Below are positions 11,874 through 37,570 of a DNA stretch of 64,000 nucleotides, in pieces. Under the pieces are notes generated by a model. The model was not told where the DNA came from. It saw only the letters and a program-made list of their open reading frames with translations, and made no database searches. Position numbers and translations under genes: made by a program. Every line of letters starts with the position of its first letter. Positions within the stretch are counted from its first letter, which is position 1. Origin of the DNA: Roseibacillus sp. (lineage in GTDB: Bacteria; Verrucomicrobiota; Verrucomicrobiia; Verrucomicrobiales; Akkermansiaceae); contig CBDEUM010000024.1 in assembly GCA_965242925.1 (NCBI GenBank), positions 1-64,000 on the forward strand, in the 5' to 3' direction.

Positions 11874-11954
11874 AAGGAGGAGTGTGTATTCCTGTCCATA
11901 TAACCTTTCGCTTGGCGCTTGCAAAGCACCACCCCCCGATCAGCCTACACCGCT

Positions 11955-16483: not shown

Positions 16484-16508
16484 ATCGACCTTCAATCATT
16501 TTCAAGAC

Positions 16509-18449: not shown

Positions 18450-18549
18450 GCGGGGTCAGGCCGGGAGTTCCCGCATCCGTGTTTGACACCCTGTGGGCGA
18501 TTCAGGGAAGATATCCGGGACGTGGGTCGATCACGACCCGGCTCTCCGT

Positions 18550-18777: not shown

Positions 18778-18797
18778 TCACGGCACCCTGAAGAATA

Positions 18798-20632: not shown

Positions 20633-21703
20633 ATGAGCTGTGATCTGAACGTGGAAGAGGCCCGCGCGGCGCTGGACGAGCGCGTCCGCGAAAGCATGAA
20701 GTGGCACTTTTCGCCCGAAACCGGTTGCCCCTACTGGCTTGACCGGGCTGCTGGTCTCGGGTTCGACCCCATCGCGGAGGTGACCTGCTTCGCCGACATG
20801 CAGAAGTTCCCGAACTTTGACGACGAAGTGCTGCGGAAGGAGGATCCCGCCCGGTTCATTCCGAAGGCCTACGAAGGCCAGCCCTACAACGTATTCGAAA
20901 CCGGGGGGACAACCGGGATGCCCAAGCAGCGGATCGGCTGGGAAGACTACAAGACCGACTACTCGGAGTTCAGCGATCATTATGCGGCCGACTTCTTTCC
21001 ACAGGGGGGCAACTGGCTGATGGTAGGGCCCACGGGACCGCGAAGATTGAGACTCTCGATTGAGCATCTTGCCAATCGCCGGGGCGGCGCCTGCTACTTT
21101 ATTGATCTCGATCCCCGCTGGGTGAAGCGTCTGATATCGGACGGGGAATATGCCATGGCCCGCAAGTACCAGGAGCACGTCATCGACCAGGCCGTCACCA
21201 TTATCAGGCACCGGAATATCCAGTGTCTTTTCACCACGCCCAAGCTCCTCGAGAGTCTTGCGGAGCGCATGTCCCTGGTGAATGCCGGTATCAAAGGGGT
21301 CTTCGCGGGAGGGACCACCATGACGCCGCAGTACGTGCGTTTTATCGAAGAGGAGGTGCTGGAGGGGAGAATCAATTACGCCCCAACCTACGGGAACACC
21401 CTGATGGGGCTTGCGATCAGCCGGAAGCGGGAACCCGGGGAATACAGCCTGACCTACTATGCGCCCCAACCGCGGGCCGTTCTGCGGATCGTTGACCCGG
21501 ATGACGCCACTAGGGATGTGGAATACGGTGAGTATGGACGGGTCGAGTTGACCACCATGACGAAGGAATTCTTCGTGCCGCGCTTCCTTGAGCGGGATGA
21601 AGCCATTCGTCGCGAGCCCTGCGGGGAATTTCCGTGGGATGGGGTAGGCGATGTGCGACCCTTCCAGAGTGGGACAAAGCAGGTGATCGAGGGGGTCTAT
21701 TAA
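20633..21703 (+). CDS. EhpF/GriC-like atypical adenylate-forming enzyme (carboxylate-activating subunit)
   Basis: WHFSPETGCPYW, ETGGTTG.PK P-loop, TYGNTL, ERD, C-terminal VIEGVY. At 356 aa it lacks the ANL C-terminal domain. Confidence 0.75.
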   Translation: MSCDLNVEEARAALDERVRESMKWHFSPETGCPYWLDRAAGLGFDPIAEVTCFADMQKFPNFDDEVLRKEDPARFIPKAYEGQPYNVFETGGTTGMPKQRIGWEDYKTDYSEFSDHYAADFFPQGGNWLMVGPTGPRRLRLSIEHLANRRGGACYFIDLDPRWVKRLISDGEYAMARKYQEHVIDQAVTIIRHRNIQCLFTTPKLLESLAERMSLVNAGIKGVFAGGTTMTPQYVRFIEEEVLEGRINYAPTYGNTLMGLAISRKREPGEYSLTYYAPQPRAVLRIVDPDDATRDVEYGEYGRVELTTMTKEFFVPRFLERDEAIRREPCGEFPWDGVGDVRPFQSGTKQVIEGVY

Positions 21704-21804
21704 TGAGACCAGCCCCGGGGAGGAGAACCCTGAACCCGGACCGGAACAATGAATTGGCAGAGTAATTTTTCTACCCGAAACGCGCGGACGTTTTGCTGCT
21801 TGCG

Positions 21805-23241
21805 ATGAGTGACGAGATCCACATTCCCATCCTGCGCCTGGGCGAGGAGTACCGCAGTCTCGATACCGTGGAACTGGAAGCGGGGACGGACGGGAAGATC
21901 TTCACGCACACCGCCAATCCGGGACTGATCAGGCGGGATCTCCTCGGAATTGAAAAGTCGCAGACGGCGCTCAATGCCATCCCGTCCGACACCCTGGCCG
22001 GCTACTGCGAACAGGCGGCGGAACTTTTCCTGAATGAGGAATTGCCGGTGGGGGATGGAACGCAGGGGCCGCAAGATTATGTCGAGGCGCTTTCCGCCCT
22101 GACGAAACTGCCTCATACCCTAGTGCGCATGAACATGGGGAAGATTCATGCCGCCATGTCCCAGATCCGGACCGTGATCGGAGGGCTGACCCGCAACCTT
22201 CCCCTTGAGCTGTTTGACCGGGGACTCTCTTCCCTCGGGGAACTGGAGGTAAACTACTATCCGGTCACGGAGGCTTTGGGGGTATCCCTTCCCAGCAACG
22301 CCCCGGCGGTCAACTCGCTCTGGCTCCCGGCTCCCGTTCTCAAGATCCCTGTTCTCCTCAAGCCCGGCCGGGAGGACCCCTTCACCCCATTACGGATCGT
22401 GCAGGCCCTCATTGCGGCAGGATTTCCGAAGGAGGCCTTTGGCTTTTATCCCACCACCCACGAAGGCGGGGATACCATTCTCATGTGCTGCGGGCGAGGC
22501 ATTGCCTTCGGCAGCGATGCCACAGTGCAAAAATATGCCGGCTTTCCCAGTATCCAGGTGCACGGCACGGGACGAAGCAAAGTGCTCCTCGGGGCGGACT
22601 ACGCTGACAAGTGGGAGGACCATGCCAGGACCTTGGTAGAGTCCATTTCCGCGAATGGGGGCCGTAGTTGCATTAACACCTCCGCGATCCTGGTCCCCTC
22701 CGGCCGGGAGGAGCTGGCGGATGCCATCGCAAGGCAACTCGCCGTCATTGAGCCCCTCCCCCGCGACCATGAGGAGGCCCTTCTCTGCGGGTTCTCCAAC
22801 ACCGAGTGGGCGGGCTCCATCAATGATCTCATCGATCAACACCTCAAGGTGGAGGGGGCCGAGGATGTGACGGCTCGTTACCGTAGCGGCTCGCGGCTGG
22901 TCGAGATGCACGGGCAGACCTACCTGCGACCGACCCTGGTTTCCTGCGCCGATTCCGGGCATCCGCTCGCCAACACGGAGTTCATGTTTCCCTTTGCGAG
23001 TGTTTCGGAGATTCCGCAGGAGCGAATGCTCGATGAGATAGGGGAAACCCTGGTGGTTTCGGCCTGGACCGAGGATTCAGACTGGATCCGCCAACTCATG
23101 AATTCGCCCGACATCGAACGCTTGAATATTGGACCATTCCCGACCAACCGGGTACAGTGGGAGCAGCCCCATGAGGGCAATCTGTTTGAGTTCCTGTATC
23201 GCCGCCGGGCGATCCAGGGAAATCTTGCGGCAGTGAGCTGA
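21805..23241 (+). CDS. aldehyde dehydrogenase superfamily, GriD/EhpG/LuxC-like acyl reductase
   Basis: LPSNAP, LKPG, FGS, NGGRSC (catalytic Cys), TEFMFP. HGTGRSK replaces ELGGK. Confidence 0.78.
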   Translation: MSDEIHIPILRLGEEYRSLDTVELEAGTDGKIFTHTANPGLIRRDLLGIEKSQTALNAIPSDTLAGYCEQAAELFLNEELPVGDGTQGPQDYVEALSALTKLPHTLVRMNMGKIHAAMSQIRTVIGGLTRNLPLELFDRGLSSLGELEVNYYPVTEALGVSLPSNAPAVNSLWLPAPVLKIPVLLKPGREDPFTPLRIVQALIAAGFPKEAFGFYPTTHEGGDTILMCCGRGIAFGSDATVQKYAGFPSIQVHGTGRSKVLLGADYADKWEDHARTLVESISANGGRSCINTSAILVPSGREELADAIARQLAVIEPLPRDHEEALLCGFSNTEWAGSINDLIDQHLKVEGAEDVTARYRSGSRLVEMHGQTYLRPTLVSCADSGHPLANTEFMFPFASVSEIPQERMLDEIGETLVVSAWTEDSDWIRQLMNSPDIERLNIGPFPTNRVQWEQPHEGNLFEFLYRRRAIQGNLAAVS

Positions 23242-23248
23242 ATTAGAA

Positions 23249-24412
23249 ATGGACCCTTTCACGACCAGACCCAGCCCGCGGCTGGTGGGTGGACCAGGCG
23301 CTCTCGCGGAGTTGCCCGCTTGTATCCGGGAGAGCGGAGGGAAAAATGTGCTGATCGTAACGGATCCCGGGATCATGGCGGCGGGTCATGTTGCACGTGC
23401 CACTGCCATGCTTGCGGAGGCGGGGATCGACTTCACCGTTTACGACGACACTAGTGAGAATCCGGAGGAGCGCGATATTGTCGCCGCCTGTGCATTTGCC
23501 CGTGGGGTGGAGGTCGACTGTTTTGTCGGCCTCGGAGGCGGCAGCAGCATGGATACGGCCAAAGGCTGCAACTTTCTTCTTACCAACGGGGGGACCATGA
23601 GCGATTACAAGGGCTACGCCCTGGCCCGAAGCCCCTTGCTCCCCTTCGTGGCAGTTCCCACCACCGCAGGAACGGGGAGTGAGTGTCAGAGCTACGCGGT
23701 GATCAGCCGCGACCAGTCACATGAGAAGATGGCTTGTGGCGATCCCGGGGCCCTGGCGTCGGTCGCCATTCTGGACCCGGAGCTCACCGCCTCCATGCCC
23801 CACCAGGTTGCGGTCCTGACAGCTCTTGATGCCCTCGCACACTCCCTTGAGACGGCGGTATGCACGCGGCGCAATCCGTTCTCCTCTGCATTTTCCCGGG
23901 AGGCCTTCCTGCACATCGCCTCCGCCATCGAGCCGATCCTGGCGGGCAATGCTACCAGGCAGGACCGCAGTGAGATGTTGCTGGGAGCGTCCTTCTCCGG
24001 GCTCGCTATTGAGAACAGCATGCTGGGAGCGGCCCACGCTTCAGCCAACCCGCTTACGGCCCGGTTTGGTCTTGCGCACGGGCATGCGGTTGCCCTCATG
24101 CTTCCGCATGTCATACGATATAACCACGAAGAATCCGCTGCCCGGGACACGTATGATCACTATGGAGGACTTCTTTCCCGCCGCGGCTACGCAGAAGTCC
24201 CGGTTACCCAGTGGGTTGAGGGGTTGCTGGGCCTTGCGGCCCTGCCTTCCCTGGGGGAAGTCGGGGTGGACCCGCGCATTTTTCCCGAGTTGGCAGAGGA
24301 CGCAACCAGGCAGTGGACGGGACAATTCAATCCCCGGGCCATGACTGCGGAAGGATTTGTGCTACTCTATGAGCGCGCGATGGGTGCAGCGTCAACCCCG
24401 AGGGCACTATGA
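23249..24412 (+). CDS. iron-containing (family III) alcohol dehydrogenase
   Basis: GLGGGSSMD.AK, PTTAGTGSE, DALAHSLE, GAAH, AHG. Confidence 0.92.
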   Translation: MDPFTTRPSPRLVGGPGALAELPACIRESGGKNVLIVTDPGIMAAGHVARATAMLAEAGIDFTVYDDTSENPEERDIVAACAFARGVEVDCFVGLGGGSSMDTAKGCNFLLTNGGTMSDYKGYALARSPLLPFVAVPTTAGTGSECQSYAVISRDQSHEKMACGDPGALASVAILDPELTASMPHQVAVLTALDALAHSLETAVCTRRNPFSSAFSREAFLHIASAIEPILAGNATRQDRSEMLLGASFSGLAIENSMLGAAHASANPLTARFGLAHGHAVALMLPHVIRYNHEESAARDTYDHYGGLLSRRGYAEVPVTQWVEGLLGLAALPSLGEVGVDPRIFPELAEDATRQWTGQFNPRAMTAEGFVLLYERAMGAASTPRAL

Positions 24413-25569
24413 AGAACTCGTTATCAGGGACTCTCGCCATCTGGACCTTTCTGGTCCTGCTGGGGGTGACCATGGGAAATGGAGCGCCCGTAGAGAACAA
24501 GGCTGCAGCCGTGACGAAAAGCTGGACCATCCCGCGAGGCGGCAATGCCCTGCAGGGCCGGGTGGCGGATGCGGTTCCCCGCAAGCCCAGGGTCAAGTGG
24601 GATGTCGTCCTGGATGGACCGGTCATCGGCGATGCGGCCATTGCGGATGGAATGGTCTACATCGGGACGGTGATGGGAACCTTTTATGCCATCAACTTCG
24701 AAACCGGAAAGGCCCGCTGGAAATTCGAGACGGAAGACACCATCGACGCTCCGCCTGCAGTCGGGCTGGGCAGGGTTTTCATCGGGTCAAGCGACTGTTT
24801 CTTTTACTGTCTCGATCAGAAGACGGGAAAGGAGCTCTGGAAGTACGAGGGAGCAGACAAGTTCGTGGGTGGTGGTCTCCTGGTGCGGAGTCCCGATAAC
24901 AAGGAGGACTGGATCGTGGTCAACGGCTACGATGGGATCTGTCGCGCCCTGCGGACGAAGGACGGGAGCGAAGCATGGATCTACGAGACCGCCGCGCAGA
25001 TTAATGGGACGCCGGCACTCGTGAATGGCAAGACAGTTGTCCTTGGTGGCTGCGATGCCCTTGTGCACGTTGTCGATGTTACCAACGGGAAGGCAGTCAA
25101 TGAAGTGCAGGTGGACGCGGAGATCATCGGGACGGTGGCCACCATGGGCAGCATGGTTTACTCTGCCAATTACGGGAACCAGCTGGCAGCGGTGGACATA
25201 GAGAAGAAGAAGCCAAAGTGGATTTACGAGGACAAGGACTTCGGGTTTTACGCTGCCCCCGCCCTTAACGACGAACTGGTCTTCATTGGCTCTCGCGACA
25301 AGCATCTGCACGCCGTGAACCGGGAAAGCGGGAAACGGGCATGGCGCTTTAAAACCGGCGCGCGCATCGATGGCGGGGCCATCGTATTCCGGGATGCAGT
25401 TGTTTTTGGCTCCGGGGACGGGAGGCTGTATGCCTTGAAGCCCTCAGATGGCAGCGAGATCTGGCGGCTCGATCTGGGAGAGGGAATCGGCTCCGACCTT
25501 GCCTTCGCCAGCGGGTGTATTGTGGTGGGCGGATCGGATGGCAGCCTCTTCTGCATCGAAGGACAATGA
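24409..25569 (+). CDS. PQQ-like (BamB-like) eight-blade beta-propeller protein
   Basis: N-terminal hydrophobic leader, regular G..(R/L)W blades, ATGA overlap with the ADH stop codon. Confidence 0.85.
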   Translation: MKNSLSGTLAIWTFLVLLGVTMGNGAPVENKAAAVTKSWTIPRGGNALQGRVADAVPRKPRVKWDVVLDGPVIGDAAIADGMVYIGTVMGTFYAINFETGKARWKFETEDTIDAPPAVGLGRVFIGSSDCFFYCLDQKTGKELWKYEGADKFVGGGLLVRSPDNKEDWIVVNGYDGICRALRTKDGSEAWIYETAAQINGTPALVNGKTVVLGGCDALVHVVDVTNGKAVNEVQVDAEIIGTVATMGSMVYSANYGNQLAAVDIEKKKPKWIYEDKDFGFYAAPALNDELVFIGSRDKHLHAVNRESGKRAWRFKTGARIDGGAIVFRDAVVFGSGDGRLYALKPSDGSEIWRLDLGEGIGSDLAFASGCIVVGGSDGSLFCIEGQ

Positions 25570-25781
25570 ACCCCTCAGCGCCTGATCATTGAAATGCTGG
25601 ACAATGCTGGAAATAGAATCTTGTGGCGGATCGGGCTAGGAAGTCCTGCAGGCGAGAAAGGGTCGCTGAGGCAGCCCAGCAAGCTGCGTTATTTCAATTA
25701 CCGGGAGATCTCACTACTCTTCGATCCGGACCCCCGAGGTGATTTCAGGAGGACCAATGAGCGAACCCTATCCCCGAAGCC

Positions 25782-27107
25782 ATGAGTGATACCGCCCACC
25801 CTCCGAAAAAGAAGGCCACCCAGGCCGGCAATTACTTCATTTCCAATTATCCGCCTTTTTCCTTCTGGTCGGAAGAGCAGGGAGCAGAAGTCCTGAAGAC
25901 CTTTGAAAGGCCGCCCGCCCCGGAGACGCCCTTGGGCCTCTATCATCACATCCCCTTCTGCCGGAAGCGATGCCACTTCTGCTACTTCCGGGTCTACACT
26001 GACAAGAACGCGCAGGAGATCCGTGACTACCTTGAGCACACCATGCGTGAACTGGAGCGCTTGGCCGCCAAACCCCTTCTCAAGGGTCGCAAGCCGCACT
26101 TTATCTACTTTGGTGGAGGGACACCCTCCTACCTCTCTGCCAGCCAGCTTACGGAGTTGACCGATCGCATGAAGGCCATCCTGCCCTGGGACGAGGCGGA
26201 GGAGGTTGCCTTTGAATGTGAACCAGGCACGCTCAACCCGGGGAAGTTGTCGGCCATCAAGGAAATCGGAGTCACGCGGCTCAGCCTTGGCATCGAGAAC
26301 TTTGATGACCGCGTCCTTGAGATCAACGGGCGCGCTCATCGCAGCAAGGAAGTGTGGAGCGCCTACGAAAGGGCCCAGGCGGAAGAGTTTGAGCAGATCA
26401 ACATCGACCTCATTGCGGGGATGCTGGAGGAAACCGAGGAGAACTGGCAGAAGAATATCGAACAGGTTCTCGAGCTCAGTCCGGACAGCATCACCATTTA
26501 CCAGATGGAGATTCCCTACAACACGACCATCTACAAGGACATGAAGGAGAGCGGGGCATTGATCGCCCCGGTGGCCGACTGGGAGACCAAGCGCCGCTGG
26601 GTGAAGGAGGCCTTCGCGGAACTGGAAGCCAACGGTTATACCATCAGCTCAGGTTATACCGCGGTGAAGAATCCGGATAAAACGAAGTTCATCTACCGCG
26701 ATGCTCTCTGGGGCGGAGCCGACTTGGTTGGCCTGGGCGTGGCGTCCTTCTCCCACGTGCAGGGGGTGCACTACCAGAATCTGACCGAGATCGACGATTA
26801 TACCAAGGTTGTTGAGGCGGGGGAGATGCCCGTCAAGCGTGCCTTCCGAACCAGCGAGGAAGAGCGCATGATTCGCGAGTTCATTCTGCAGATGAAGCTT
26901 GGCCACGTTGATTCGGCCTACTTCGGGGAAAAGTTCGGGGTAAACATTCTGGAGCGTTTCGTTGTCCAGCTGGAAGAACTGAGGGAGGAAGGTCTCCTGG
27001 AGGTGGCGGAGGGCTCCATTATCCTTCACCGCGACGGACTCCTCTGTGTGGACAATCTTCTCCACGACTTCTTTCTCGAACATCATAAGACGGATCGGAT
27101 TGTGTAG
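25782..27107 (+). CDS. HemN-like (coproporphyrinogen III oxidase family) radical SAM protein
   Basis: LYHHIPFCRKRCHFC (CxxxCxxC), YFGGGTPS, RLSLG, NIDLIAG, C-terminal HemN_C-like region. Confidence 0.88.
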   Translation: MSDTAHPPKKKATQAGNYFISNYPPFSFWSEEQGAEVLKTFERPPAPETPLGLYHHIPFCRKRCHFCYFRVYTDKNAQEIRDYLEHTMRELERLAAKPLLKGRKPHFIYFGGGTPSYLSASQLTELTDRMKAILPWDEAEEVAFECEPGTLNPGKLSAIKEIGVTRLSLGIENFDDRVLEINGRAHRSKEVWSAYERAQAEEFEQINIDLIAGMLEETEENWQKNIEQVLELSPDSITIYQMEIPYNTTIYKDMKESGALIAPVADWETKRRWVKEAFAELEANGYTISSGYTAVKNPDKTKFIYRDALWGGADLVGLGVASFSHVQGVHYQNLTEIDDYTKVVEAGEMPVKRAFRTSEEERMIREFILQMKLGHVDSAYFGEKFGVNILERFVVQLEELREEGLLEVAEGSIILHRDGLLCVDNLLHDFFLEHHKTDRIV

Positions 27108-27150
27108 GTTCCAGATTTGAAATGGTAATCGGCATTCCCCCCGGGGGGGG

Positions 27151-27756
27151 GTGGCGATCTCGCACGACAGCCTTCCCCGATCACAATTTAATCAGTTCTC
27201 CGTGAATCAACTCCAGCAGTCAGCCTTTCCCGAGTTCCTGCGCGAATCGCTCTCGCGGGCCGGATTGCTGGGAGACTGGTTCTCATGGCATGAGCCCGAG
27301 GAGGTGCCGGAACCGTTCCGCGAGCTCCTCATTCATGAGATGGATATGACCTCTACCCTTGAACGGTATCACGGGGAGCAGATGATACTGGAAGTCCTGG
27401 CAGACGGTCAGGCCGACGGCTACTACTTCCGCGAGGTGATCCTGCGGGGAGGAGAAACAGGTCGGGCTGCCGAATTCGGGCTGATAGAAATCGAGGTCAG
27501 CCAGTTCCCCGAGGATCTGCACGAGGCCATTCTCTCGGGAAGAAAGCCGCTGGGCGGAATCATGAACGAGAGCGGAATGATCTATGAAAGCCAACCGCTG
27601 GGCTACTTTTCGGTTGCGCGCGGGAAGCTTCCAACGAAATTGTGTGCCCTCGGGAATGGCGATATATTCTACGGTCGCTATAACCAGCTTATGAGGGCGG
27701 ACGGCAGCTGCCTGGCCCGCATCCTCGAGATCATTCCCCGCTCCTCCGATTCATGA
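27151..27756 (+). CDS. chorismate pyruvate-lyase (UbiC/Rv2949c/DUF98)-like protein; start uncertain (27151 or 27202)
   Basis: LLIHEMDMTSTLE, REVIL and ILSG.KPLG.IM match the UbiC-fold pattern (LL....T..LE / REV.L / PLG..L). Confidence 0.6.
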   Translation: MAISHDSLPRSQFNQFSVNQLQQSAFPEFLRESLSRAGLLGDWFSWHEPEEVPEPFRELLIHEMDMTSTLERYHGEQMILEVLADGQADGYYFREVILRGGETGRAAEFGLIEIEVSQFPEDLHEAILSGRKPLGGIMNESGMIYESQPLGYFSVARGKLPTKLCALGNGDIFYGRYNQLMRADGSCLARILEIIPRSSDS

Positions 27757-29024
27757 AGATGCAAAGTGAACCCCAGTCCTGCGACGTCATCGTGGTCGGG
27801 GGCGGACCCTCCGGTTCTGCCGCGGCAGCGCTTCTGGCGGGAAAGGGGCATAAGGTCATTCTCCTCGAGAAGGAAAGGTTTCCCCGCTACCACGTGGGCG
27901 AGTCCCTCATGCCCTTCTGCTACTTCACCCTGGAGCGTCTTGGCGTCTTGGAGCAGATGGAAGAGCACGCTTTTGTGAAGAAGCACAGTGTGCAGTTCGT
28001 CACCAAGGAGGGACAGATCTCGACCCCCTTCTATTTCTTCCAGCATCTTGATCATCCGGCAGCCACCACCTGGCAGGTGGAACGGTCTGTCTTTGATGAA
28101 ATGCTCCTGCGCAATGCGGAGGAGAAGGGGGTTGAAGTCCGTGAAGAGACGCAGGTCCAGAACTTCACCTTCGACGGCGATTGTGTCACCGGGGTGGTTG
28201 CGAGGGCGAAGGATGGAGCGGACTATTCCCTCCAAGCTCCCGTGACGCTCGACTGTACCGGTCGGGAGGCGCTTTTTCTGCGCAAGAAGAAATGGCGCCG
28301 CCGCGATCCGCAGCTCAACAAGATTGCGATCTGGACCCTCTTCAAGGGGGCCAAGCGGGACGAAGGACTGGATGAAGGAGCGACTACCGTGGCTTATTTG
28401 GACGGCCGGGGTTGGTTCTGGAACATTCCGCTGCGCGATGACATCGTAAGCTCAGGGATTGTTGCGGAACGCGACTATCTCTACCGTGACACCCGTGACC
28501 TGCAGGAGATTTATGAGCGGGAGATCAAGGAGAACAGCTGGATCAAGGAGCACCTTACCACAGGTGAGCAGTTTGGCGAATACTGGGTGACCGGCGAGTA
28601 TTCCTACCGTGGCGAACAGTGTGCGGCCGATGGGCTGCTCATGGCCGGCGATGCTTTTGCGTTTCTCGATCCGGTCTTTTCTTCCGGGGTTTTTCTCGCG
28701 CTCAAGAGCGGGGAGATGGCGGCCGATGCAATCAGTGGGGCTCTGGAGGCGGGGGACGTGTCGACAGGGCAGTTCCTGGAGTATGGAGAGAAGCTCTGCC
28801 AAATGATCGAAGTCATGCGAAAACTGGTCTACGCGTTTTACGACAAGGACTTCAGCTTTGCGAAACTGATCAAGAAGCACGGGGAAATTCGCCCCATGCT
28901 CACGGACTGTCTTATCGGCGATCTTGACGGGAAGGATTACAAGCCCCTCGCGGAAGCGATGAGCGGTCTTGCCTCCCTTCCCGAACCACTCGGACACGGA
29001 CGGGTTCCTCAATCCGTTAAATAA
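27753..29024 (+). CDS. flavin-dependent halogenase-like FAD oxidoreductase
   Basis: GGGPSG, FPRYHVGES, FVKK (Lys at the halogenase catalytic position), WFWNIP (WxWxIP), GDAFAFLDPVFSSG (FxxPxxSxG). Confidence 0.75.
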   Translation: MKMQSEPQSCDVIVVGGGPSGSAAAALLAGKGHKVILLEKERFPRYHVGESLMPFCYFTLERLGVLEQMEEHAFVKKHSVQFVTKEGQISTPFYFFQHLDHPAATTWQVERSVFDEMLLRNAEEKGVEVREETQVQNFTFDGDCVTGVVARAKDGADYSLQAPVTLDCTGREALFLRKKKWRRRDPQLNKIAIWTLFKGAKRDEGLDEGATTVAYLDGRGWFWNIPLRDDIVSSGIVAERDYLYRDTRDLQEIYEREIKENSWIKEHLTTGEQFGEYWVTGEYSYRGEQCAADGLLMAGDAFAFLDPVFSSGVFLALKSGEMAADAISGALEAGDVSTGQFLEYGEKLCQMIEVMRKLVYAFYDKDFSFAKLIKKHGEIRPMLTDCLIGDLDGKDYKPLAEAMSGLASLPEPLGHGRVPQSVK

Positions 29025-29043
29025 CACCCCTTCCCCGTTCGGC

Positions 29044-30357
29044 ATGAAAGTCACCTTCCTGACTGCGGGCACGGGCAGCTATCACTGCGGGGCGTGCATG
29101 CGGGACAACACCCTGGTCACGGCCCTTCATCGGGACGGGCACCAGCTGGCGTTACTGCCGATGTACCTTCCCATGCAGTTGGACGAAGAGATCCTCCCGC
29201 AAGTACAGGAAGCGCCCATATTCTTTGGTGGGATTAATGTCTACCTGCAGCAGAAATTTTCTTTTTTCCGTCACACTCCCCGTTGGCTGGACAGTCTCTT
29301 CAATGGGGAGGGACTACTGCGATCCGCGGCCAGACGCAGCCACATGACCAGTCCACAGGAGCAGGCGGAGATGTGCCTGGCCATGCTGCAGGTGGACGAG
29401 AGCCGCCTCACCAAGGAACTCGACAAGCTCATCGACTGGCTTGAGCATCACGAGCGACCGGATTTCATCGCGCTCTCCAACGCGCTTCTCTCGGGGGTGA
29501 CGCGGGAACTCAAGAAGCGGCTGGGAGATATTCCGGTGATGGTGTTTTTCCAGGGAGAGGACACCTTTCTCGATAGTCTGCCCGAGCCCTACCGCACAAG
29601 AAGCTGGGAGGAAATGAAGGAGCGTCTCGCAGAGTGCGACATGCTCGTTGCGCCCAGCCATTTCTATGCCGGGGTGATGGGAGAGCGTCTTGGGATCCCC
29701 CTGGCGGAGATCGAGATTCTTCCCAATGGAATCAACCTGGAGGGTTACGGGGAACCCGTGGAGGACGGCCTTCAGGCCATTGGTTATCTCGCCCGCATGA
29801 GCCGTGAGAAGGGCCTTGGGGCCCTGGTGGATGCCTACCTTCTGCTGCAGGAGGGAGGCAGGTTTCCACAGTGCCGGCTCAGGATTGCTGGATCATGCAC
29901 CCCAGGAGATGAGGTGTTCGTGAAGGATCAGAAGGAGAAGATTGAGCGGGCCGGTCTTAGTGAAATGGTGGATTGGCATCCCAATCTGACGCGGGAGCAG
30001 AAGACGGAGTTTCTTCGGGGCCTCACGGTGTTCTCCGTGCCGGTGCAGTATTCCGAGGCCTTTGGACTCTACCTGATCGAAGCGATGGCGAGCGGGGTGC
30101 CGGTGGTGAATCCGGAGGGATCGGCCTTCGAGGAGATCGCCGCGGTGACCGGGGGAGGGCAGACAGTGGCCCCCGGCGATCCTTCCGCGCTGGCTCGAGG
30201 CTGGGAAGATCTCCTGGCCAACCCGGGGGAGGCGGCTGCGATGGGAGAAAGAGGTCGCCGCGGGGTGGCGGAACGGTATAGCGTCACTGCGATGAAGGAT
30301 GGCTTCCTCGAACTCGCCGGACGGGTTTGCGCCGCAGCCGGACCACGGGATTCATGA
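29044..30357 (+). CDS. glycosyltransferase family 4
   Basis: PNGI, YLARMSREKG, EAFGLYLIEAMASGVPVV. N-terminal CGAC. Confidence 0.9.
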   Translation: MKVTFLTAGTGSYHCGACMRDNTLVTALHRDGHQLALLPMYLPMQLDEEILPQVQEAPIFFGGINVYLQQKFSFFRHTPRWLDSLFNGEGLLRSAARRSHMTSPQEQAEMCLAMLQVDESRLTKELDKLIDWLEHHERPDFIALSNALLSGVTRELKKRLGDIPVMVFFQGEDTFLDSLPEPYRTRSWEEMKERLAECDMLVAPSHFYAGVMGERLGIPLAEIEILPNGINLEGYGEPVEDGLQAIGYLARMSREKGLGALVDAYLLLQEGGRFPQCRLRIAGSCTPGDEVFVKDQKEKIERAGLSEMVDWHPNLTREQKTEFLRGLTVFSVPVQYSEAFGLYLIEAMASGVPVVNPEGSAFEEIAAVTGGGQTVAPGDPSALARGWEDLLANPGEAAAMGERGRRGVAERYSVTAMKDGFLELAGRVCAAAGPRDS

Positions 30358-30803
30358 GTGACGAGAGCAAGAGCTATTCCTTTGAGTATCAGCGGCGGGT
30401 CGAATTTCACGAAACCGATCTCGCCGGGATCGTGCATTTTTCCAACTTCTACCGGTACATGGAGACCGCAGAGCACGAGTTCATGCGTAGTCTCGGCCAT
30501 CCCGTACACCGGCAGATAGCGGAGGCGGAAATCGGATGGCCGCGGGTGAGTGCCAGCTGTGAATTCCGCAAGCCTGCCCGGAACGACGACGTCCTTGTCA
30601 TCCGGGTCTCCATTGACGAGATCCGCACTCGCTCGGTTCGGTATGGGTTTCGGTTCTACCTCGATCCTGCAGATCCTCCCATTGCCACCGGGAGAGTGGC
30701 CGCGGCCTGTGTGAAGTTTGAGAACGGAGGCATCACCGCCGTCCCCATTCCCGATCAGATCCGCTCCGATCTCGAAGCCGCCCTGGCGGCGACCAAGTCC
30801 TGA
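30354..30803 (+). CDS. acyl-CoA thioesterase, 4-hydroxybenzoyl-CoA thioesterase/YbgC hotdog family
   Basis: RRVEFHETDLAGIVHFSNFYRYME; ATGA overlap with the GT4 gene. Confidence 0.9.
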   Translation: MSDESKSYSFEYQRRVEFHETDLAGIVHFSNFYRYMETAEHEFMRSLGHPVHRQIAEAEIGWPRVSASCEFRKPARNDDVLVIRVSIDEIRTRSVRYGFRFYLDPADPPIATGRVAAACVKFENGGITAVPIPDQIRSDLEAALAATKS

Positions 30804-30850
30804 TTGATCAAGTGAATGGCGCTCTTCCATCACCCCAAAAAAAGAAATCC

Positions 30851-31402
30851 ATGAACTGGCTTATTTTCGCCCTCATGACCGTGGCCTGCTGGGGCCTTTA
30901 CGGGATTTTCCTCCACGCAGGCCAAGTCGAAATGCAGGACAAGGAGCTGGGTCGGTACAAGGCGTTTCTCTTTGTGGGGATTGCCTATTTCATCACCGCG
31001 GTAGTGGCTCCTCTGGTGGTTCTCCTCGTCAAGGGTGCGGAGGGGACCTGGGCGATGCCGAGCAAGGGGATGTGGCTTTCGCTTTTTGCCGGAATCCTCG
31101 GGGCGGCAGGAGCATTCTGTGTTCTCCTTGCCATGGCGTCCGGGGCGAAAGGGGGGATGAGCCCTGCGGTGGTGGCGATCTCGGTCATGTCGATCATCTT
31201 CTGCGGGGCTCCGCTCGTCAATGCGATCGTATCGATCTGGATGGACCGGCCCGAGGGCGGCCTCGCGGCCATTCCCTGGCAATTTCTCTGCGGCATTTTG
31301 ATCGCGGCTCTCGGCGGCTTCATGGTGGTGAAATTCAAGCCTGCCGGGTCCCACGGGACCCCGCCCAGGAAGCCGGGGATTGAAGTCCCGGCGAAGGAGT
31401 AG
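30851..31402 (+). CDS. DMT/EamA-like membrane protein (single repeat)
   Basis: Five hydrophobic helices; WLIFAL.TV..WG.YG start; G...A..G C-terminal helix. Confidence 0.65.
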   Translation: MNWLIFALMTVACWGLYGIFLHAGQVEMQDKELGRYKAFLFVGIAYFITAVVAPLVVLLVKGAEGTWAMPSKGMWLSLFAGILGAAGAFCVLLAMASGAKGGMSPAVVAISVMSIIFCGAPLVNAIVSIWMDRPEGGLAAIPWQFLCGILIAALGGFMVVKFKPAGSHGTPPRKPGIEVPAKE

Positions 31403-31430
31403 TCTGGAAGGCTTCGGTCTGCCGGAGCGC

Positions 31431-32666
31431 ATGGAAGCAATGATGTCCCTGAGCGCAATCAACGATCTGTTCGGTGCCATCCTTCCCGCGAATGAATTTT
31501 ACGCGGCGAAGCTTGGAGAGAGACGCAGGGTCGAGAGCCTGGAGGAATTCAGGGAGGAGATTCCCTTCACTACCAAGGATGAACTGGCCGCAGATCACGA
31601 GGACCACCCGCCTTACGGCACGACCCTGACGTATCCGCTGGAGACCTATACCCGTTTCCACCACACGAGCGGCACACGGGGCAACCCGATGGCCTGGCTG
31701 GACGACCCCGCGGGGTGGGCGTGGATCCTGGAGTCATGGCAGTGGGTGTGGTCCAACGCGGGCACGCGTTCTGGCGACAGTGCCTTCTTTCCCTTTTCCT
31801 TCGGGCCCTTTCTCGGATTCTGGTCGGCTTTCGAGGCCGCGGCGGCGATGGGGATCCGGGCGATTCCTGGCGGGGGCCTTTCCAGCGAAGACCGGCTGAG
31901 GATGATGGCCCTGCATCGGCCGCAATTCATGGCCTGTACGCCGACCTACTCCCTGCATCTTGCATTGGTGGGGAAGGGCATGGGGCTCCCGGTGGACCGC
32001 CTGGGGGTCAAGGCCCTGGTGGTGTGTGGTGAGCCCGGCGGGAGCATCCCGGAAGTGCGGGAGCGCATCGAGGCGGAGTGGGGCGCGCGTGTGATCGATC
32101 ATCATGGGATGACAGAGACTGGTCCGGTTACCGTGAGCGATCCCGACCATCCCGACTTGCTGCGCATTTATCATTCCTCCTATCACGCCGAGGTTGTCAG
32201 CCCGGAGAGCCTTGAGCAGGTGACTCTTGGAGAGGTGGGGGAGCTGGTCCTGACCACTCTGGGGCGTTATGGGGCTCCTCTGATCCGCTACCGAACCGGA
32301 GATCTCGTCCGGCCGGTTGCCCCCGAGAAAACGGATCCTGCTCCCTTTGCGTTGCAGGGCGGAATTATTGGGCGGGCGGATGACATGGTGGTGGTGCGTG
32401 GGGTGAACATCTATCCCAGTGCGATCGAAGCGGTAGTGCGCTCAGTAGATGGAGTGGGGGAGTACCAGGTGGAAGTGGACGAGCAGGGGACGCTGCCGGA
32501 AATCAGCCTGGTGATCGAGAATCTCGGAGATGGCCGGTCTGAAGAGGCATTGGAAGCCCGACTCCGCTCTGTCTTTTCCATGCGGATTCCGGTAAGAGCA
32601 GTAGAGTTCGGCACCCTGCCGGTTTCTGAAGTGAAGGCCCAGCGCTGGAAGGTGATTAGCGAATGA
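31431..32666 (+). CDS. phenylacetate-CoA ligase (PaaK) family aryl-CoA ligase
   Basis: IPFTTK, HTSGTRG.P, TPTY, GEPG, HGMTE, RYRTGD, GRADDM..VRGVNIYP. Confidence 0.9.
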   Translation: MEAMMSLSAINDLFGAILPANEFYAAKLGERRRVESLEEFREEIPFTTKDELAADHEDHPPYGTTLTYPLETYTRFHHTSGTRGNPMAWLDDPAGWAWILESWQWVWSNAGTRSGDSAFFPFSFGPFLGFWSAFEAAAAMGIRAIPGGGLSSEDRLRMMALHRPQFMACTPTYSLHLALVGKGMGLPVDRLGVKALVVCGEPGGSIPEVRERIEAEWGARVIDHHGMTETGPVTVSDPDHPDLLRIYHSSYHAEVVSPESLEQVTLGEVGELVLTTLGRYGAPLIRYRTGDLVRPVAPEKTDPAPFALQGGIIGRADDMVVVRGVNIYPSAIEAVVRSVDGVGEYQVEVDEQGTLPEISLVIENLGDGRSEEALEARLRSVFSMRIPVRAVEFGTLPVSEVKAQRWKVISE

Positions 32667-33337
32667 TCGATGTCCAAAATGTCAGCAAGGTTTATGAGAT
32701 GCCCGGCGAGTCGCTGCGTGTACTTGATGAGGTGAGCCTGCAGGTGGGTGCGGGAGAGACCGCTGCGATAGTTGGTCCATCAGGAAGCGGAAAGACGACT
32801 TTGCTCAATCTGCTTGGAGTCCTGGACCAGCCCAGTGAGGGACGGGTCCTGATCGACGGCAGGGACGTGGCGTCGTTTGACGAGGAGCAGGCCGCCGCCT
32901 TCCGCAACCGGTCTCTTGGGTTTGTCTTTCAGCACCACCATCTGCTCCCGCAGTGTACCCTCCTGGAAAATGTCGTTCTTCCACGGTTGGCCGGGGGCTG
33001 GACGGAGGCGGAGGAGGAAACCACCGCGCGGGCCGAGGCGTTGCTGGGCGAAGTAGGCCTGCAGGACCGCCTCGCCCACTTTCCCCATCAGCTCTCGGGC
33101 GGGGAGCGGCTGCGGACGGCCCTCGCCCGGGCCCTGGTCAACGAACCGAGACTGGTCTTGGCGGACGAGCCGACAGGATCACTCGACCAGGAGACCACCG
33201 GAGTGGTAGCTGATTTGCTTGAGCAGCTTAATGCCCGGATGGGCGTGACCCTGGTGGTTGTCACCCACAATGCGGCCCTTGCGGGGCGAATGCAGGCCCA
33301 CTACGAGCTTCGCGGCGGGAAGCTGGAGAAGCAATGA
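32663..33337 (+). CDS. ABC transporter ATP-binding protein (LolD/MacB family)
   Basis: GPSGSGKTT, LSGGE, LADEPTG, VTHN. Confidence 0.95.
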   Translation: MIDVQNVSKVYEMPGESLRVLDEVSLQVGAGETAAIVGPSGSGKTTLLNLLGVLDQPSEGRVLIDGRDVASFDEEQAAAFRNRSLGFVFQHHHLLPQCTLLENVVLPRLAGGWTEAEEETTARAEALLGEVGLQDRLAHFPHQLSGGERLRTALARALVNEPRLVLADEPTGSLDQETTGVVADLLEQLNARMGVTLVVVTHNAALAGRMQAHYELRGGKLEKQ

Positions 33338-36300
33338 ATGCCCTCAAGTTCATTCGGCGTGGGATCTGGCACTACAAGTTGTCCTACCTCGGGGTAGGAG
33401 CAGGCGCGGTCCTGGGAGCCACCGTCCTGCTGGGGGCGCTGATTGCGGGCGACTCGGTGAAGGAGACCCTTCGGGAGGTGGCGCGCCAGCGGGTGGGCCA
33501 GGTCGACCAGGTCTTTGTGGCGGGGGAGGGCTTCTTCCGTGACGCTCTTGCTGCGGACGTGGCCACGGATTCCCTGCGGGCTGCGCCCATTCTGTTCCTG
33601 CGGGGCCAGCTCAATTCACCGTCCAGCGAGCGCGGATTGGGCAGGGTGCAGATTCTTGGAGTGGATGATCGGTTCTGGGGATTTTCGCCGGGCTCCGGCG
33701 AGGCGGTGGCCCTCCAGTCCCGCGAGGTGGCCGTCAATGACTACCTGGCAAACGCACTGGACCTGAAAGAGGACGACTCGGTGATCCTGCGCCTGCAGGA
33801 ACCCGGGATGTTGTCGCGCGATGCGCCGCTTTCTGGAGAAGCAGAGGACGTGATCAGCTTCCGCGCCAAGGTGCGGGCGGTATTGGGTGACGGGCAGTTC
33901 GGGCGTTTCAACCTCCGGGCCACCCAGCTTCCGGTCCCTACCGTCTTCGTTCCCCTCAGCCGATTGCAGCAGGTGGTTGATCAACCCGCGCGCGCCAACC
34001 TCCTCCTGCTGGGCTCCGGGGAGGGCGGGACGCCCTTCCGCGGCGATCTGGCGGGGCACATCCGCAGCCGGATGACTCTGGAAGACTACGGCTTCTCCCT
34101 GGTTGACGTTCCGCTGGCGGGAGCGACCGAGATCCGCTCGGCACGCATTTTCTTCGAGGCGCCGATCGTCGAAGCGGTCAGGGCCCGCTTTCCAGGGACC
34201 GTCCCGGTGACCAGTTACCTGATCAACACCTATGCGGCCAAGGGGAAGGAAACCCCCTACTCCATGGTGGCGGCGGTCCGATCGCAAGGGGCGCCCTTCC
34301 TGCCCGAGCCGTTCTCGAGGCAAGATATCGTGATCAACGACTGGCTGGCGGAGGATCTAGAAGTCGAGGTGGGAGAGGAGATCAGCCTGGTCTTTTTCAG
34401 GCTGGTGGGGGGCAACCAGCTGGAGGAGGCCACCGCCGGGTTTCGCGTACGCGGCATCGTGGCGCGGGAGGGTCTGGCAGCTGATCAGCTCTGGATGCCG
34501 GACTTCCCGGGAGTGGCGGAGGCGGAGGACGCCCAGGACTGGGCGCCAGGGCTGCCCCTTGATCTGGAGCGCATCCGACAGAAGGACGAAGACTACTGGG
34601 ATGAACATCGAGGGACCCCCAAGGCGTTCATTTCCGAGGAGCGGGGGCGTGAATTATTCGGGAATCGGTGGGGAGAGTTTACCTCCCTGCGGATTCCCTC
34701 CAGGGAGGCGCCGGGAACCGGACTGGAGAAGGAACTCCTCCCCCTTCTCAAGCCCGGGATGGCGGGTCTGCTTCTTCGCAACCTTGGCGAAGATGCGCAG
34801 GCGGCCGCCCAGTCGCCGGTCGACATAGCGGGGCTCTTCCTGAGCATGAGCGTTTTCCTGATCGTGGCTTCAGTGGCCCTTACGGCGATGCTGTTCCGCT
34901 TTAATATAGAACAACGAAACCGGGAAAGCGGATTGCTGGCGGCCCTGGGCGTGTCTGCGAAGAGGGTCCTGCGCTGGCGCCTGTTGGAAGGTCTCATTAT
35001 TGTAACGGGTGGCGGGCTCATCGGCCTCCTCCTCGCGATTGTCTACTCGACAGGGATCCTGCGCTTTCTTGCAACGATCTGGAGTGAAGGCTCGGGCGAG
35101 ACCTTCTTTGTCGTTCACCTCAACCCCGTGAGCATGGTTACCGGCCTCCTCATCTTTATCGCATTATCGATGGGCGCAATCTGGCTCACCGCGCGGAAGC
35201 AGGCCCGGAAAAGTGCGACCCTGCGCCTGGAGGCGGGAGCGGAGGAGGTGCGTCGTGGGAGTGTGCGGGTGCGCCTCCTGCTGGCCTGTGGGATTGTCAG
35301 CGTTCTCCTCGGGCTCGGATGTATCGTGGCCAGGAACGGGATGGGTCCGCAGGCGGCCTTTTTCCTTTCCGGGACGTTTTTGCTGGTGGCGGGGCTTTTG
35401 AACTACCGTGCGTGGTTGGGCTGGAATGGCGCACGGAGTCGCCGGGCCCTTTCGTCCCGCTCGTTGGCCACCCTCAACAGCGGCCGCCGTCCCACCCGTA
35501 GCCTGGTGGTGGTGGGCACCATGGCCTGCGGGGTTTTCCTGGTCATTGCGGTGACGGCCTTCCGGAAGCACGGAGGAGAAGAGTGGGCCGAAAAGTCGAG
35601 CGGAGCCGGTGGGTTCGCCTTCTGGATCGAGACCACCAGTCCAGTCAATCGCGCGGCCGATGCAAAGAAGGACCCGGACTACTTCGAGTTGGGGGATCAA
35701 CGGGGGCTGCTGGGAGAGATCCGGCCCTTTCGCATGGGAGTGGGTGACGATGCGAGCTGTTTCAATCTGAATACCGCCGCCCGGCCCCGCCTGCTGGCCA
35801 CCGATGTCGGCGCTCTGGCCGGGCGCGGGTCGTTCACCCTCAAGGCGGTGGCCGAAGGAAGGGATATCGAGAAGGGATGGGAGATTCTCCGCGAACCGGC
35901 GCACCCCCGGGTTCTGCGGGCTTTTGTCGATCAAACCACCATGATGTGGGTCCTGAAAAAGAAGGTGGGGGATCGCATCACCTATCAGGACGAGCGGGGC
36001 GTGGATTTTGAGGTCGAGATCACGGGAGCGTTGGCTGACAGCATCTTTCAGGGGAATCTGATCGTGGACGAGGCCGCTTTTCTCAGGCTGTTTCCGTCCC
36101 AGGAGGGCTACCGGCTCTTTCTGGCCGATGTTCCCGGTGATTCCGACTACGCACTTGGGGAGCTCCAGAAAGCCACCGCGGACCGTGGAAGCGTGATCAC
36201 CCTGACGCGGGAACGTCTGGAGGGCTTCCACGGCGTGGAGAACACTTACATCGCGATCTTTCACGTTCTGGGCGGTCTGGGGCTTATTCTTGGCAGCGCC

Positions 36301-36614
36301 GGGCTCGGGATTGTGACGGCCCGTAACCTCGCCGAACGGCGGGGTGAGTTCAGGGCGCTTCGAACTATTGGCATTCCTCACCGGGTGACCAGAAACGTCA
36401 TCTTCAAGGAGGTGCGGGGTTTTATCGGGTGGGCCTTTGGATTGGCCTCCTCGCTTCCCTGGTGGCCATCCTGCCCGCCCTCAACGGGGCGCCACCGGTG
36501 GGCACGTTCCTTGGACTGGGCGCAATGGTGGTTCTCATCGTCCTCAACAGCCTGTTCTGGGCCTTTGTCGGGTACGTGGTGGGCTACCGGCGGCGGGCAG
36601 GCATCGGAATGTGA
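33334..36614 (+). CDS. ABC transporter permease, duplicated MacB/FtsX type (apparent frameshift near 36440)
   Basis: Two large periplasmic domains, each followed by FtsX helices (EQRNRESGLL.ALG; ERRGEF.ALR.IG). The last two helices continue in frame 36429..36614. Confidence 0.85.
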
Positions 36615-36663
36615 GCGCGACTCCGTTCTTTCCGTCGATCGGGAGGCTTCCTAGGCTGTCCGG

Positions 36664-37570
36664 GTGAAACAACTGCTGCTCGCACTGCTGATGACGACGT
36701 CGCTGGTCTCGGGGGCCGGATGGATTGACCTGTGGCCCGGGGAAGCGCCTGGTGCCCCGCGTCCCAAGGCCGGGACGGAAACGGGGGGAGAAGGCTGGCG
36801 GATTGCCCATACCGAAGTTCCGCAGTATGTGCTCTTCAAGGCCGAGAAGCCAAATGGAACAGGGGTGGTCGTCCTGCCTGGCGGGGGCTATGCCATGCTG
36901 GCGGCTGATCACGAGGGCCGGCAGGTGGGGGAGTGGTTCGCCAAACGGGGAATCACAGCGATCGTCGTGAAGTACCGGGTCAGTTCCAATCCGGCGCTCG
37001 GGTATCACTTTCCCGTTCCCCAGATGGATGCCCGGCGGGCGATCCGGACCATGCGCTTCAAGGCCGGGGACTGGGGGATCGATCCGGCCAGGATTGGAAT
37101 CATGGGGTTCTCCGCCGGAGGGCATCTCTGCTCCACCGCGGTGACCATGTTTGACGACAAGTTCGAAGCAGGAAACGGACGATCCCATCGATCAGGTCAG
37201 TTGCCGCCCCGATTTTGGGATTCTTTGTTATCCGGTCATCGCGATGGGCCAGCCCCACTGTCATCAGGGGTCGGTGCGCAATCTTCTGGGAGCCAATCCC
37301 TCCAGGGAGCTCTTGGACCGGAACAACACCGCCAGGCGAGTGACCGGGAAGACGCCGCCCATTTTTCTCGTGCACTCCGCCGATGACCGGGCGGTGCCCC
37401 TGCGCAACGGAACGGACTTTGCCGCCGCTTGTTCAGACAAGGGAGTGCCGGTGTCCTGCCATATTTATGCGCAGGGAGGTCACGGCTACGGACTGGGCCG
37501 CTCGGGAGACTCAAAGAACTGGCCGGCCCGACTTGAGGACTGGCTGCGGCACAATAAGTGGATGAAGTGA
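36664..37570 (+). CDS. secreted alpha/beta hydrolase (BD-FAE/acetylxylan-esterase-like; apparent frameshift near 37171)
   Basis: PGGGY and GFSAGGH in the first frame. RPDF.IL.YPVI, D..V and GGHGYG (catalytic Asp/His) in ORF 37151..37570. Confidence 0.85.

Follow-up and report, generated by a model that had tools for sequence, protein, structure and literature searches.

A conserved gene cluster of Verrucomicrobiota and Planctomycetota that may make a halogenated hydroxybenzoate derivative for the cell envelope

The window analyzed here is a 64,000-nucleotide stretch of DNA from Roseibacillus sp. (Verrucomicrobiales, Akkermansiaceae; contig CBDEUM010000024.1, positions 1 to 64,000 of the forward strand). 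It carries an operon-like, tightly packed unit of about 17 genes at window positions 14204–36654, in which genes for two exported β-propellers and an importer pair are followed by g01 to g13, a set of enzyme, membrane and transporter genes. The gene products belong to known enzyme families; as a unit, they are undescribed in the literature that was searched. The unit is a trait of Verrucomicrobiota and Planctomycetota, widespread yet patchy rather than a rare specialized cluster, and its strong, wide conservation is what makes it of interest. We tentatively propose, as a reading short of probable, that the cluster builds a halogenated hydroxybenzoate from chorismate, reduces it to the aldehyde or alcohol, and delivers it to the envelope, where the propellers act. 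The folds, motifs, linkage and g01–g02 contact reported below are computed; every chemical step, the order of the steps and the product are what we infer.

An earlier note on this DNA, made from the letters alone, had proposed an undescribed cluster for a modified hydroxybenzoate-derived metabolite at 20633–37570. Its 14 co-directional genes are recovered as 14 open reading frames (ORFs) on the + strand at the same coordinates, and inspection of starts and stops confirms all five ATGA overlaps that it had listed (24409, 27753, 30354, 32663 and 33334). It had also stated that a polyketide synthase (PKS), a nonribosomal peptide synthetase (NRPS) and an acyl carrier protein (ACP) are missing, and the scan of ORFs across the window likewise detected none of these, nor any other carrier-protein domain. 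The boundaries that it drew did not stand. The unit is larger than first described, as the exported propellers and the DUF3311/SSF pair at 14204–20489 are conserved with g01–g13. At the other end, the esterase gene (36664–37570, + strand; Pfam BD-FAE/Abhydrolase_3; split into two frames) is probably a neighbor and not a cluster member: an esterase gene lies near the cluster in the genus and in one of the 80 loci described next.

The conservation was established as follows. An alignment of 11 EhpF-like (g01) orthologues was used for a pattern scan of a one-genome-per-species collection, which returned more than 576 stretches; confirmation succeeded for 573, and the counts below use the best 80 loci. 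These loci come from Verrucomicrobiales, Opitutales, Chthoniobacterales, Limisphaerales and Planctomycetota. Neighboring genes were counted by tblastn (E ≤ 1e-10, coverage of at least 40%) within 10-kb flanks, many contigs being shorter than that. On this count, homologues of g02 are present in 58 of the 80 loci, of the propeller lipoprotein gene u1 in 52, of g03 in 47 and of the symporter gene in 41. The numbers then fall to 34 for g04, 25 for g05, 22 each for g06 and g08, 16 for g07, 13 for g09, 12 for g10, four each for g11 and g12, and three for g13. Two other genomes of the genus hold the entire colinear array, including the flanking peptidyl-prolyl isomerase and leucyl-tRNA synthetase genes. 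Among the best 80 loci, the colinear order recurs in Haloferula, Opitutales and Planctomycetota, and six loci (L042, L050, L058, L064, L084 and L087) keep g01–g10 in order within the 10-kb flank; L084 is a complete Opitutaceae chromosome and L087 a complete Planctomycetales genome. In other genomes, the flanking genes are unrelated housekeeping genes, and 43 flanking ORFs of relatives yielded no recurrent extra member, PKS, NRPS, ACP or methyltransferase. The genes are thus conserved together across orders and across two phyla, and the first of the earlier note's refuting conditions, a lack of joint conservation in other genomes, does not apply.

Other families of Verrucomicrobiales carry the genes as modules, namely g01-g02-g03 (often with u1), g04-g05-g06, g06-g07-g08, and g09-g10-g11-g12-g13, and the modules are joined by differing adjacencies in different genomes. 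Co-occurrence persists where linkage does not. Among 61 related genomes, g01 is found in 40, g06 in 41 and g11 in 42, and g06 and g11 are both present in every one of the 40 g01 genomes; one extra genome, with g06 and g11, is only 70% complete. Where the Opitutaceae cluster is without g07, four of five genomes keep a 50–54% identical copy elsewhere. In the one such case examined (L122; G358:C60:131000–141000), the relocated halogenase gene lies beside a gene for an MFS transporter and three PQQ_2 propeller genes. A 905-codon frame around this gene, considered as a possible fusion, is upstream read-through overlapping the MFS gene. Next to the g09-g10-g11-g12 module of locus L037 (G045), a further radical S-adenosylmethionine (SAM) gene is found in divergent orientation at 11422–12819; it does not recur among the compared loci.

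The patchiness is evident from two genome samples. The EhpF-like gene is found in 5 of 301 genomes of a phylum-wide sample (at least 90% complete, dominated by small genomes), and within the family to which the window belongs, 16 of 36 genomes gave no hit for it. A tree of 89 sequences (quick, not fully searched, midpoint-rooted) places Roseibacillus, Haloferula and Akkermansiaceae-labeled records with Opitutaceae in a 29-row clade (support 96), and the other Verrucomicrobiales families, Chthoniobacterales and Planctomycetota in a 55-row clade (support 99). This split hints that the whole cluster may have moved between orders. Four loci (L094, L096, L102 and L110) derive from metagenome-assembled genomes labeled Saccharimonadales, Bifidobacterium and Chthonomonadaceae (Armatimonadota). 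Their EhpF-like genes nest among verrucomicrobial sequences, and they are likely mis-binned or mislabeled contigs.

DNA of the stretch is also present in marine metagenomes, with 20 runs from 14 studies holding part of it. Contigs from RNA libraries (four libraries, three studies) cover 21–28 of 30 bins and bridge g01/g02, g06/g07, g07/g08, g08/g09/g10 and g12/g13. These contigs are consistent with expression of the cluster.

The first enzymes of the cluster form a reductase module. Two-protein aryl carboxylate reductases are exemplified by GriC/GriD of grixazone synthesis in Streptomyces griseus and EhpF/EhpG of D-alanylgriseoluteic acid synthesis in Pantoea agglomerans. As in these systems, a short EhpF-type adenylating enzyme is encoded beside a partner of the aldehyde dehydrogenase (ALDH) superfamily. 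g01 (20633–21703, + strand) matches EhpF in the PDB (3hgu/3l2k, E 6.4e-54) over residues 18–356 of its 356. Its identity to Streptomyces proteins that carry the annotation "arylcarboxylate reductase" or "phenazine biosynthesis protein" is 35–39%, and that in relatives 62–98%. g02 (21805–23241, + strand; the longest ORF begins at TTG 21793) matches Pfam Aldedh (8.8e-11). Residues C289 and H253 are invariant in 28 g02 sequences; we take C289 to be the ALDH catalytic Cys, and a His presumably stands where the general-base Glu would be.

Homologues of g01 and g02 are adjacent on plasmids of Streptomyces, Halomarina and Burkholderia. One Streptomyces "arylcarboxylate reductase" that was considered as a further pair was set aside, the gene downstream being a type I PKS and not GriD-like. 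Prediction of a g01–g02 complex scored 0.73 versus 0.00 for the best of three controls. Of 157 solved complexes, 116 attain this mark; of 215 mismatched pairs, 2 do. The runs share at least 95% of the contacts, and the partner has a pLDDT (predicted local distance difference test score) of 90. g01 and g02 are thus predicted to bind each other as a GriC/GriD-type pair. To judge from sequence, the two most likely constitute a rare two-protein carboxylate reductase, with g01 as its first half. The pair differs from the characterized ones in that identity is only 35–39% for g01 and 26–31% for g02. It is conserved at 62–78% across phyla, and it is linked to propellers, a symporter and an iron-containing alcohol dehydrogenase (Fe-ADH), whereas no phenazine or aminophenol pathway accompanies it. 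The Fe-ADH is g03 (23249–24412, + strand; Pfam Fe-ADH 1.4e-47, ADH_Fe_C 2e-25).

Another module joins g06 and g07, whose genes overlap by the ATGA at 27753. g06 (27151–27756, + strand) is assigned to the chorismate pyruvate-lyase fold (UbiC/DUF98 type) from an AlphaFold model built on 27 orthologues, with a mean pLDDT of 84.4. A Foldseek search with the model finds the DUF98 protein 2nwi as the best match (E 2.5e-06, TM 0.76 on the target), followed by the E. coli UbiC structures 1g81, 1jd3, 1fw9 and 1g1b (E 7e-05 to 3.5e-04), with UTRA domains ranking lower. The chorismate-lyase-like call of the earlier note is therefore borne out at the level of the fold. The Atlas neighbors of g06 carry PF04345/PF01947 in 11–19% of their members. 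Eighteen columns are invariant in the 27 sequences, including R94 and E193. E. coli UbiC binds its product through an Arg and a Glu, to which R94 and E193 may correspond.

g07 (27753–29024, + strand) is a flavin-dependent halogenase. It matches Pfam Trp_halogenase at 4.8e-32 (111.8 bits versus a cutoff of 21), and its best PDB match, at E 7.5e-56, is a halogenase; the solved relatives matched at E 1e-41 to 1e-56 are 8zop, 3e1t, ChlB4, CmlS, PltA and RadH. Across 22 sequences, K77 and the G220-W-F-W-x-I-P226 segment are invariant, and G16, G18 and G21 nearly so. An FAD-binding GxGxxG, a conserved Lys and WxWxIP are the motifs of flavin-dependent halogenases. g07 falls below the CmlS equivalog NF033113 (198.6 bits versus a cutoff of 900). 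Its nearest solved relatives presumably act, for the most part, on thioester-tethered substrates.

Between the reductase and halogenase modules lie g04 and g05. g04 (24409–25569, + strand) encodes an exported PQQ_2/BamB-like β-propeller with a signal peptide (Pfam PQQ_2 5.1e-41). g05 (25782–27107, + strand) is a HemN-like radical SAM enzyme (Pfam Radical_SAM 8.8e-24, HemN_C 2.4e-05) that matches HemN (1olt, E 7.4e-36, residues 21–428) and NocN (E 1e-22) in the PDB. It misses the HemN equivalog TIGR00538 (207.9 bits versus a cutoff of 324.95), and the STM4012, HutW and HemW models score much the same as HemN's, all below cutoff; g05 is therefore not filed as HemN. Its reaction could be a methylation, as in class C radical SAM methylases, or an oxidative decarboxylation, as in HemN. 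The order propeller, HemN-like enzyme, lyase-like protein is kept in L030 and L034; L038 retains the first two, and L018 has g01–g05.

The remaining genes would supply activation, release, glycosylation and export. g08 (29044–30357, + strand) is a GT4 glycosyltransferase (Pfam Glycos_transf_1 1.5e-26, Glyco_transf_4 1.8e-11). g09 (30354–30803, + strand) is a 4HBT/YbgC-type hotdog thioesterase (Pfam 4HBT_2 3.9e-12, 4HBT 7.3e-10) that scores 63.9 bits against the TIGR00051 cutoff of 68.7. g10 (30851–31402, + strand) is a small polytopic membrane protein, possibly a half-size DMT transporter; it sits between g09 and g11 in L026, L033 and L037. No match to g10 was found in Pfam at E 0.001 or in NCBIfam, and one cluster among its Atlas neighbors bears the name DMT permease, no more than a lead.

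g11 (31380–32666, + strand; likely start an ATG at 31431–31443) is a PaaK-type acid–coenzyme A (CoA) ligase with Pfam AMP-binding and AMP-binding_C_2 (8.1e-12) domains. Its best PDB match is 2-hydroxyisobutyryl-CoA synthetase (6hdw, E 4.3e-47), PaaK itself being matched at E 1.3e-36 (2y27), and it is below the PaaK equivalog TIGR02155 (151.3 bits versus a cutoff of 646.3). g12 (32663–33337, + strand) is a LolD/MacB-type ABC ATPase (Pfam ABC_tran 2e-35; TIGR02211 LolD 255.5 bits versus a cutoff of 307.75), and g13 (33334–36654, + strand) is a large FtsX-domain permease (Pfam FtsX 5.7e-16). An ATPase and a permease of these kinds fit a type VII (MacB/LolCDE/FtsEX) ABC transporter; the MacB periplasmic core, MacB_PCD, was not found in g13 by the Pfam scans. 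Nearly all of the family calls of the earlier note thus hold, by Pfam, by PDB matches or by the g06 fold; the exception is "DMT" for g10, where the EamA match is weak (E 0.42).

Upstream of g01, the first gene of the unit (14204–16483, + strand) encodes an exported 759-residue protein with a signal peptide, a PQQ_2/BamB-like β-propeller (Pfam PQQ_2 4.8e-28) and an unassigned C-terminal domain of ~300 residues. In 49 of 80 loci, some of them from Planctomycetota, a full-length homologue (43–86% identity) is encoded upstream of the EhpF-like gene. The propeller lipoprotein u1 (16383–18449, + strand; Pfam PQQ_2 at the C terminus) likely starts at ATG 16509, which gives a signal peptide with an LSSC lipobox. 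After the lipobox, an 18-nt tandem repeat at 16589–16762 (9.7 copies, 95% matches) encodes a Gly/Ser/Ala/Asp linker, which is taken to be variable because orthologues align only from about residue 130. PDB searches with these two upstream propellers returned only generic BamB or designed-propeller repeats. A small DUF3311 membrane protein (18493–18777, + strand; E 5.9e-07, 29.9 bits versus a cutoff of 30) precedes the sodium:solute symporter (18798–20489, + strand; Pfam SSF 2.5e-30). The symporter's sole solved relative is SGLT1 (E 2.4e-07), and with this as the only PDB match the idea of an iodide-symporter-like halide transporter is without support. Farther upstream, a TonB-dependent receptor (11919–14114, + strand; Pfam TonB_dep_Rec_b-barrel and Plug) is a possible accessory member, as a homologue is upstream in 13 of 80 related loci. 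Altogether, three genes for PQQ_2-type propellers precede the enzymes, at 10659–11924 (− strand), 14204–16483 and 16383–18449, and g04 is a fourth inside the cluster.

A pathway can be proposed from these parts. The UbiC-fold protein g06 would make 4-hydroxybenzoate from chorismate, and the PaaK-type ligase g11 would form its CoA thioester. The flavin-dependent g07 would then halogenate the ring, the HemN-like g05 would add a further modification, and the thioesterase g09 would release the free acid. g01 and g02 would reduce the carboxylate to the aldehyde, which g03 would interconvert with the benzyl alcohol, and g08 may attach a sugar. g10 and the LolD/FtsX transporter g12–g13 are proposed to carry the product into or across the inner membrane, where three exported β-propellers would bind or process it, and the DUF3311/SSF symporter would import a precursor or recover the compound. 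More than a third of the conserved unit consists of three exported propellers, the importer pair, g10 and the type VII ABC transporter, which suggests that the compound acts in or beyond the periplasm.

The hydroxybenzoate and halogenation scheme of the earlier note thus retains its parts list. In its favor are the lyase fold beside a halogenase with invariant motifs, the PaaK/4HBT pairing, the predicted g01–g02 binding and the BaaA/BaaB precedent described next. The boundaries did not survive, and the cluster is not a rare one. The order of the steps, a radical SAM methylation and an aryl glycoside product are guesses.

The closest precedent comes from a planctomycete. Planctomycetales strain 10988 makes 3,5-dibromo-p-anisic acid, which a preprint attributes to two neighboring genes, the chorismate-lyase-like baaA and the halogenase gene baaB, with a proposed route from chorismate through 4-hydroxybenzoate to ring halogenation (10.1101/723874). 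This preprint is the only paper found in a literature search on planctomycete halogenases and chorismate lyases. As in g06–g07, the lyase-like gene is directly beside a flavin-dependent halogenase gene, no PKS or NRPS is involved, and the host belongs to a related phylum. The systems differ in that the preprint names two genes only and mentions no reductase, ligase, thioesterase, radical SAM enzyme, GT4, transporter or propeller, and in that the dibromo-p-anisic product described there retains its carboxylate and bears an O-methyl group. As L078 and L087, both of Planctomycetota, carry such a pair, baaAB may be part of the conserved cluster. The earlier note's "undescribed" does not fully apply to the lyase/halogenase pair. 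A literature search in which subscription journals were largely outside coverage found no publication on the whole unit.

The same pairing of a chorismate lyase and a flavin-dependent brominase acting on 4-hydroxybenzoate is seen in Bmp5/Bmp6 of bromophenol-producing marine Pseudoalteromonas, as summarized in the discussion of the same preprint (10.1101/723874). Bmp5 also decarboxylates its substrate, and the bmp cluster continues to P450 coupling; neither feature is seen in g01–g13.

Handling of a ring halogen on a transient CoA thioester is known from the 4-chlorobenzoate pathway, in which a 4-chlorobenzoate-CoA ligase, a dehalogenase and a 4-hydroxybenzoyl-CoA thioesterase act in turn, the thioester being present only while the ring halogen is handled. 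g09 is in the same 4HBT hotdog superfamily as that thioesterase. The halogen, however, would be put on here and is taken off there, and g11 is PaaK-type, with a 4-chlorobenzoate ligase match of only E 1e-06.

Several observations weigh against our reading. Some concern g06, which has no Pfam (PF04345, PF01947) or NCBIfam match, even at E 10, and whose 27-sequence profile reaches 2nwi in the PDB only at E 0.092. Its modeled fold is common to UTRA ligand-binding domains, so that ligand binding, not catalysis, could be the role of g06. Every NCBIfam equivalog cutoff is missed by the cluster proteins, and the cluster holds no flavin reductase and no O-methyltransferase. As for the precedent, the baaA/baaB assignment is presented without genetic validation (10.1101/723874), and baaAB is likened to g06–g07 by description, not by sequence. 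The genomes compared for co-occurrence are kin and not independent, and those counts overstate the case; they are supporting evidence, not a statistical test. The RNA-library contigs may be DNA-derived, and a contig over two genes is not the same as a single transcript. Finally, the genes at the head of the cluster encode an importer and, in 13 of 80 loci, also a TonB-dependent receptor, an arrangement that suits uptake as much as synthesis.

This last point leads to a different view of the unit, in which the TonB-dependent receptor and the DUF3311/SSF pair take up a carboxylic acid, probably an aromatic one, from the environment. The propellers would act on it first, activation, tailoring and reduction would follow in the cytoplasm for salvage, detoxification or catabolism, and the ABC/FtsX transporter would expel the product. 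Few neighbors of g01 are as constant as the symporter (41 of 80 loci) and two propellers (52 and 49). In several families, g01-g02-g03 are grouped with a propeller and the symporter, away from the genes for the lyase and the halogenase, and Fe-ADH and ALDH-type enzymes work in the oxidative direction too. A halogenase with an intact signature, a chorismate-lyase-fold protein and a GT4 are, however, biosynthetic parts; all 40 g01 genomes retain g06 and g11; and the Pfam scans find no ring-cleavage or β-oxidation genes in the cluster. On balance, we consider an uptake and conversion system unlikely, though still a live alternative.

We give still less credence to synthesis of an envelope glycolipid. 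Here, g09 would free a fatty acid, g01 with g02 and then g03 would convert it to a fatty alcohol in LuxE/LuxC fashion, the GT4 would make an alkyl glycoside, and g10 with the LolD/FtsX transporter would place it in the outer membrane, much as heterocyst glycolipids are exported by DevBCA. g12 does match the DevA family (E 8.9e-51, below cutoff). A lipid cargo would go well with a GT4, a small membrane protein resembling a flippase and a type VII ABC transporter, and g01 and g02 resemble LuxE and LuxC in size and architecture. Pfam searches up to E 10 nevertheless give only AMP-binding and Aldedh families for g01 and g02, with no LuxE or LuxC match; their matches are EhpF and proteins annotated as arylcarboxylate reductases. 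A glycolipid also leaves no role for a chorismate-lyase fold, a PaaK-type ligase or a halogenase related to phenol- and pyrrole-halogenating enzymes.

That unrelated small operons simply lie side by side in this genus would fit the gaps of 212 bp between g04 and g05 and 143 bp between u2, the gene before g01, and g01, as well as genes megabases apart in other families of the order (e.g., complete genome G045), but it is highly improbable, as the same order recurs across orders and in a second phylum, which leaves next to no room for chance juxtaposition, genomes differ in which modules they join, and presence and absence coincide over 61 genomes.

A bolder extension of the halogenated-hydroxybenzoate proposal concerns the propellers, and we regard it as a long shot. 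A diffusible halogenated hydroxybenzyl alcohol or aldehyde, or a quinone-like derivative, might serve as a cofactor or redox shuttle for the exported PQQ-like propellers. g01–g03 would make and re-reduce it in the cytoplasm, g10, g12 and g13 would export it, the propellers would oxidize or use it outside, and DUF3311/SSF would retrieve it. White-rot fungi run a comparable cycle of chlorinated anisyl alcohol and aryl-alcohol oxidase between a reducing cell interior and an oxidizing exterior. The likeness is in the cycling of a halogenated, 4-oxygenated benzyl alcohol, aldehyde and acid; the fungal cycle is eukaryotic, with unrelated enzymes, and we know of no oxidase activity for the cluster propellers. 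If true, the shuttle would be a bacterial counterpart of the fungal cycle and would explain what a large class of propeller proteins without a cofactor does in both phyla.

Should the biosynthetic proposal be correct, a common route to halogenated aromatics would be present in much of the free-living Verrucomicrobia and Planctomycetes, groups that abound in seawater, lakes and soil, and rule-based cluster finders would miss it. The route would bear on the origin of natural organohalogens such as bromophenols. It would also provide a physiological setting for the little-studied two-protein carboxylate reductases, potentially useful biocatalysts, and a first handle on the many exported β-propeller proteins of both phyla. 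Direct testing is possible because cultured strains carry the cluster (Haloferula rosea KCTC 22201, locus L044, and Planctomycetales bacterium ZRK34, locus L087).

No Rfam match was found in the window at gathering thresholds, and a promoter and terminator scan was not above shuffled sequence (5 sites versus 4.1, and 19 versus 17.1). GC content is 0.57–0.59 at 24–30 kb versus 0.58–0.65 elsewhere, with no sharp composition island.

Two frameshifts are seen near the 3′ end of the cluster by comparison with the close relative L023. At about 36440, one base is missing, putting the last ~70 codons of g13 out of frame; the counterpart ORF in L023 is 1095 residues long. At about 37166, one extra base splits the esterase gene, which is intact (304 residues) in L023. 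Environmental RNA-library contigs carry the unshifted versions, in two runs (X15 and X18) at 36438 and in one run at 37166. Errors of assembly or changes specific to the strain are thus a likelier origin of the frameshifts than the system itself. Far upstream, at 1371–5503 on the − strand, a DUF1501 gene adjoins a PSCyt2/PSD1 (DUF1549/DUF1553) gene, a pair typical of Planctomycetes and Verrucomicrobia.

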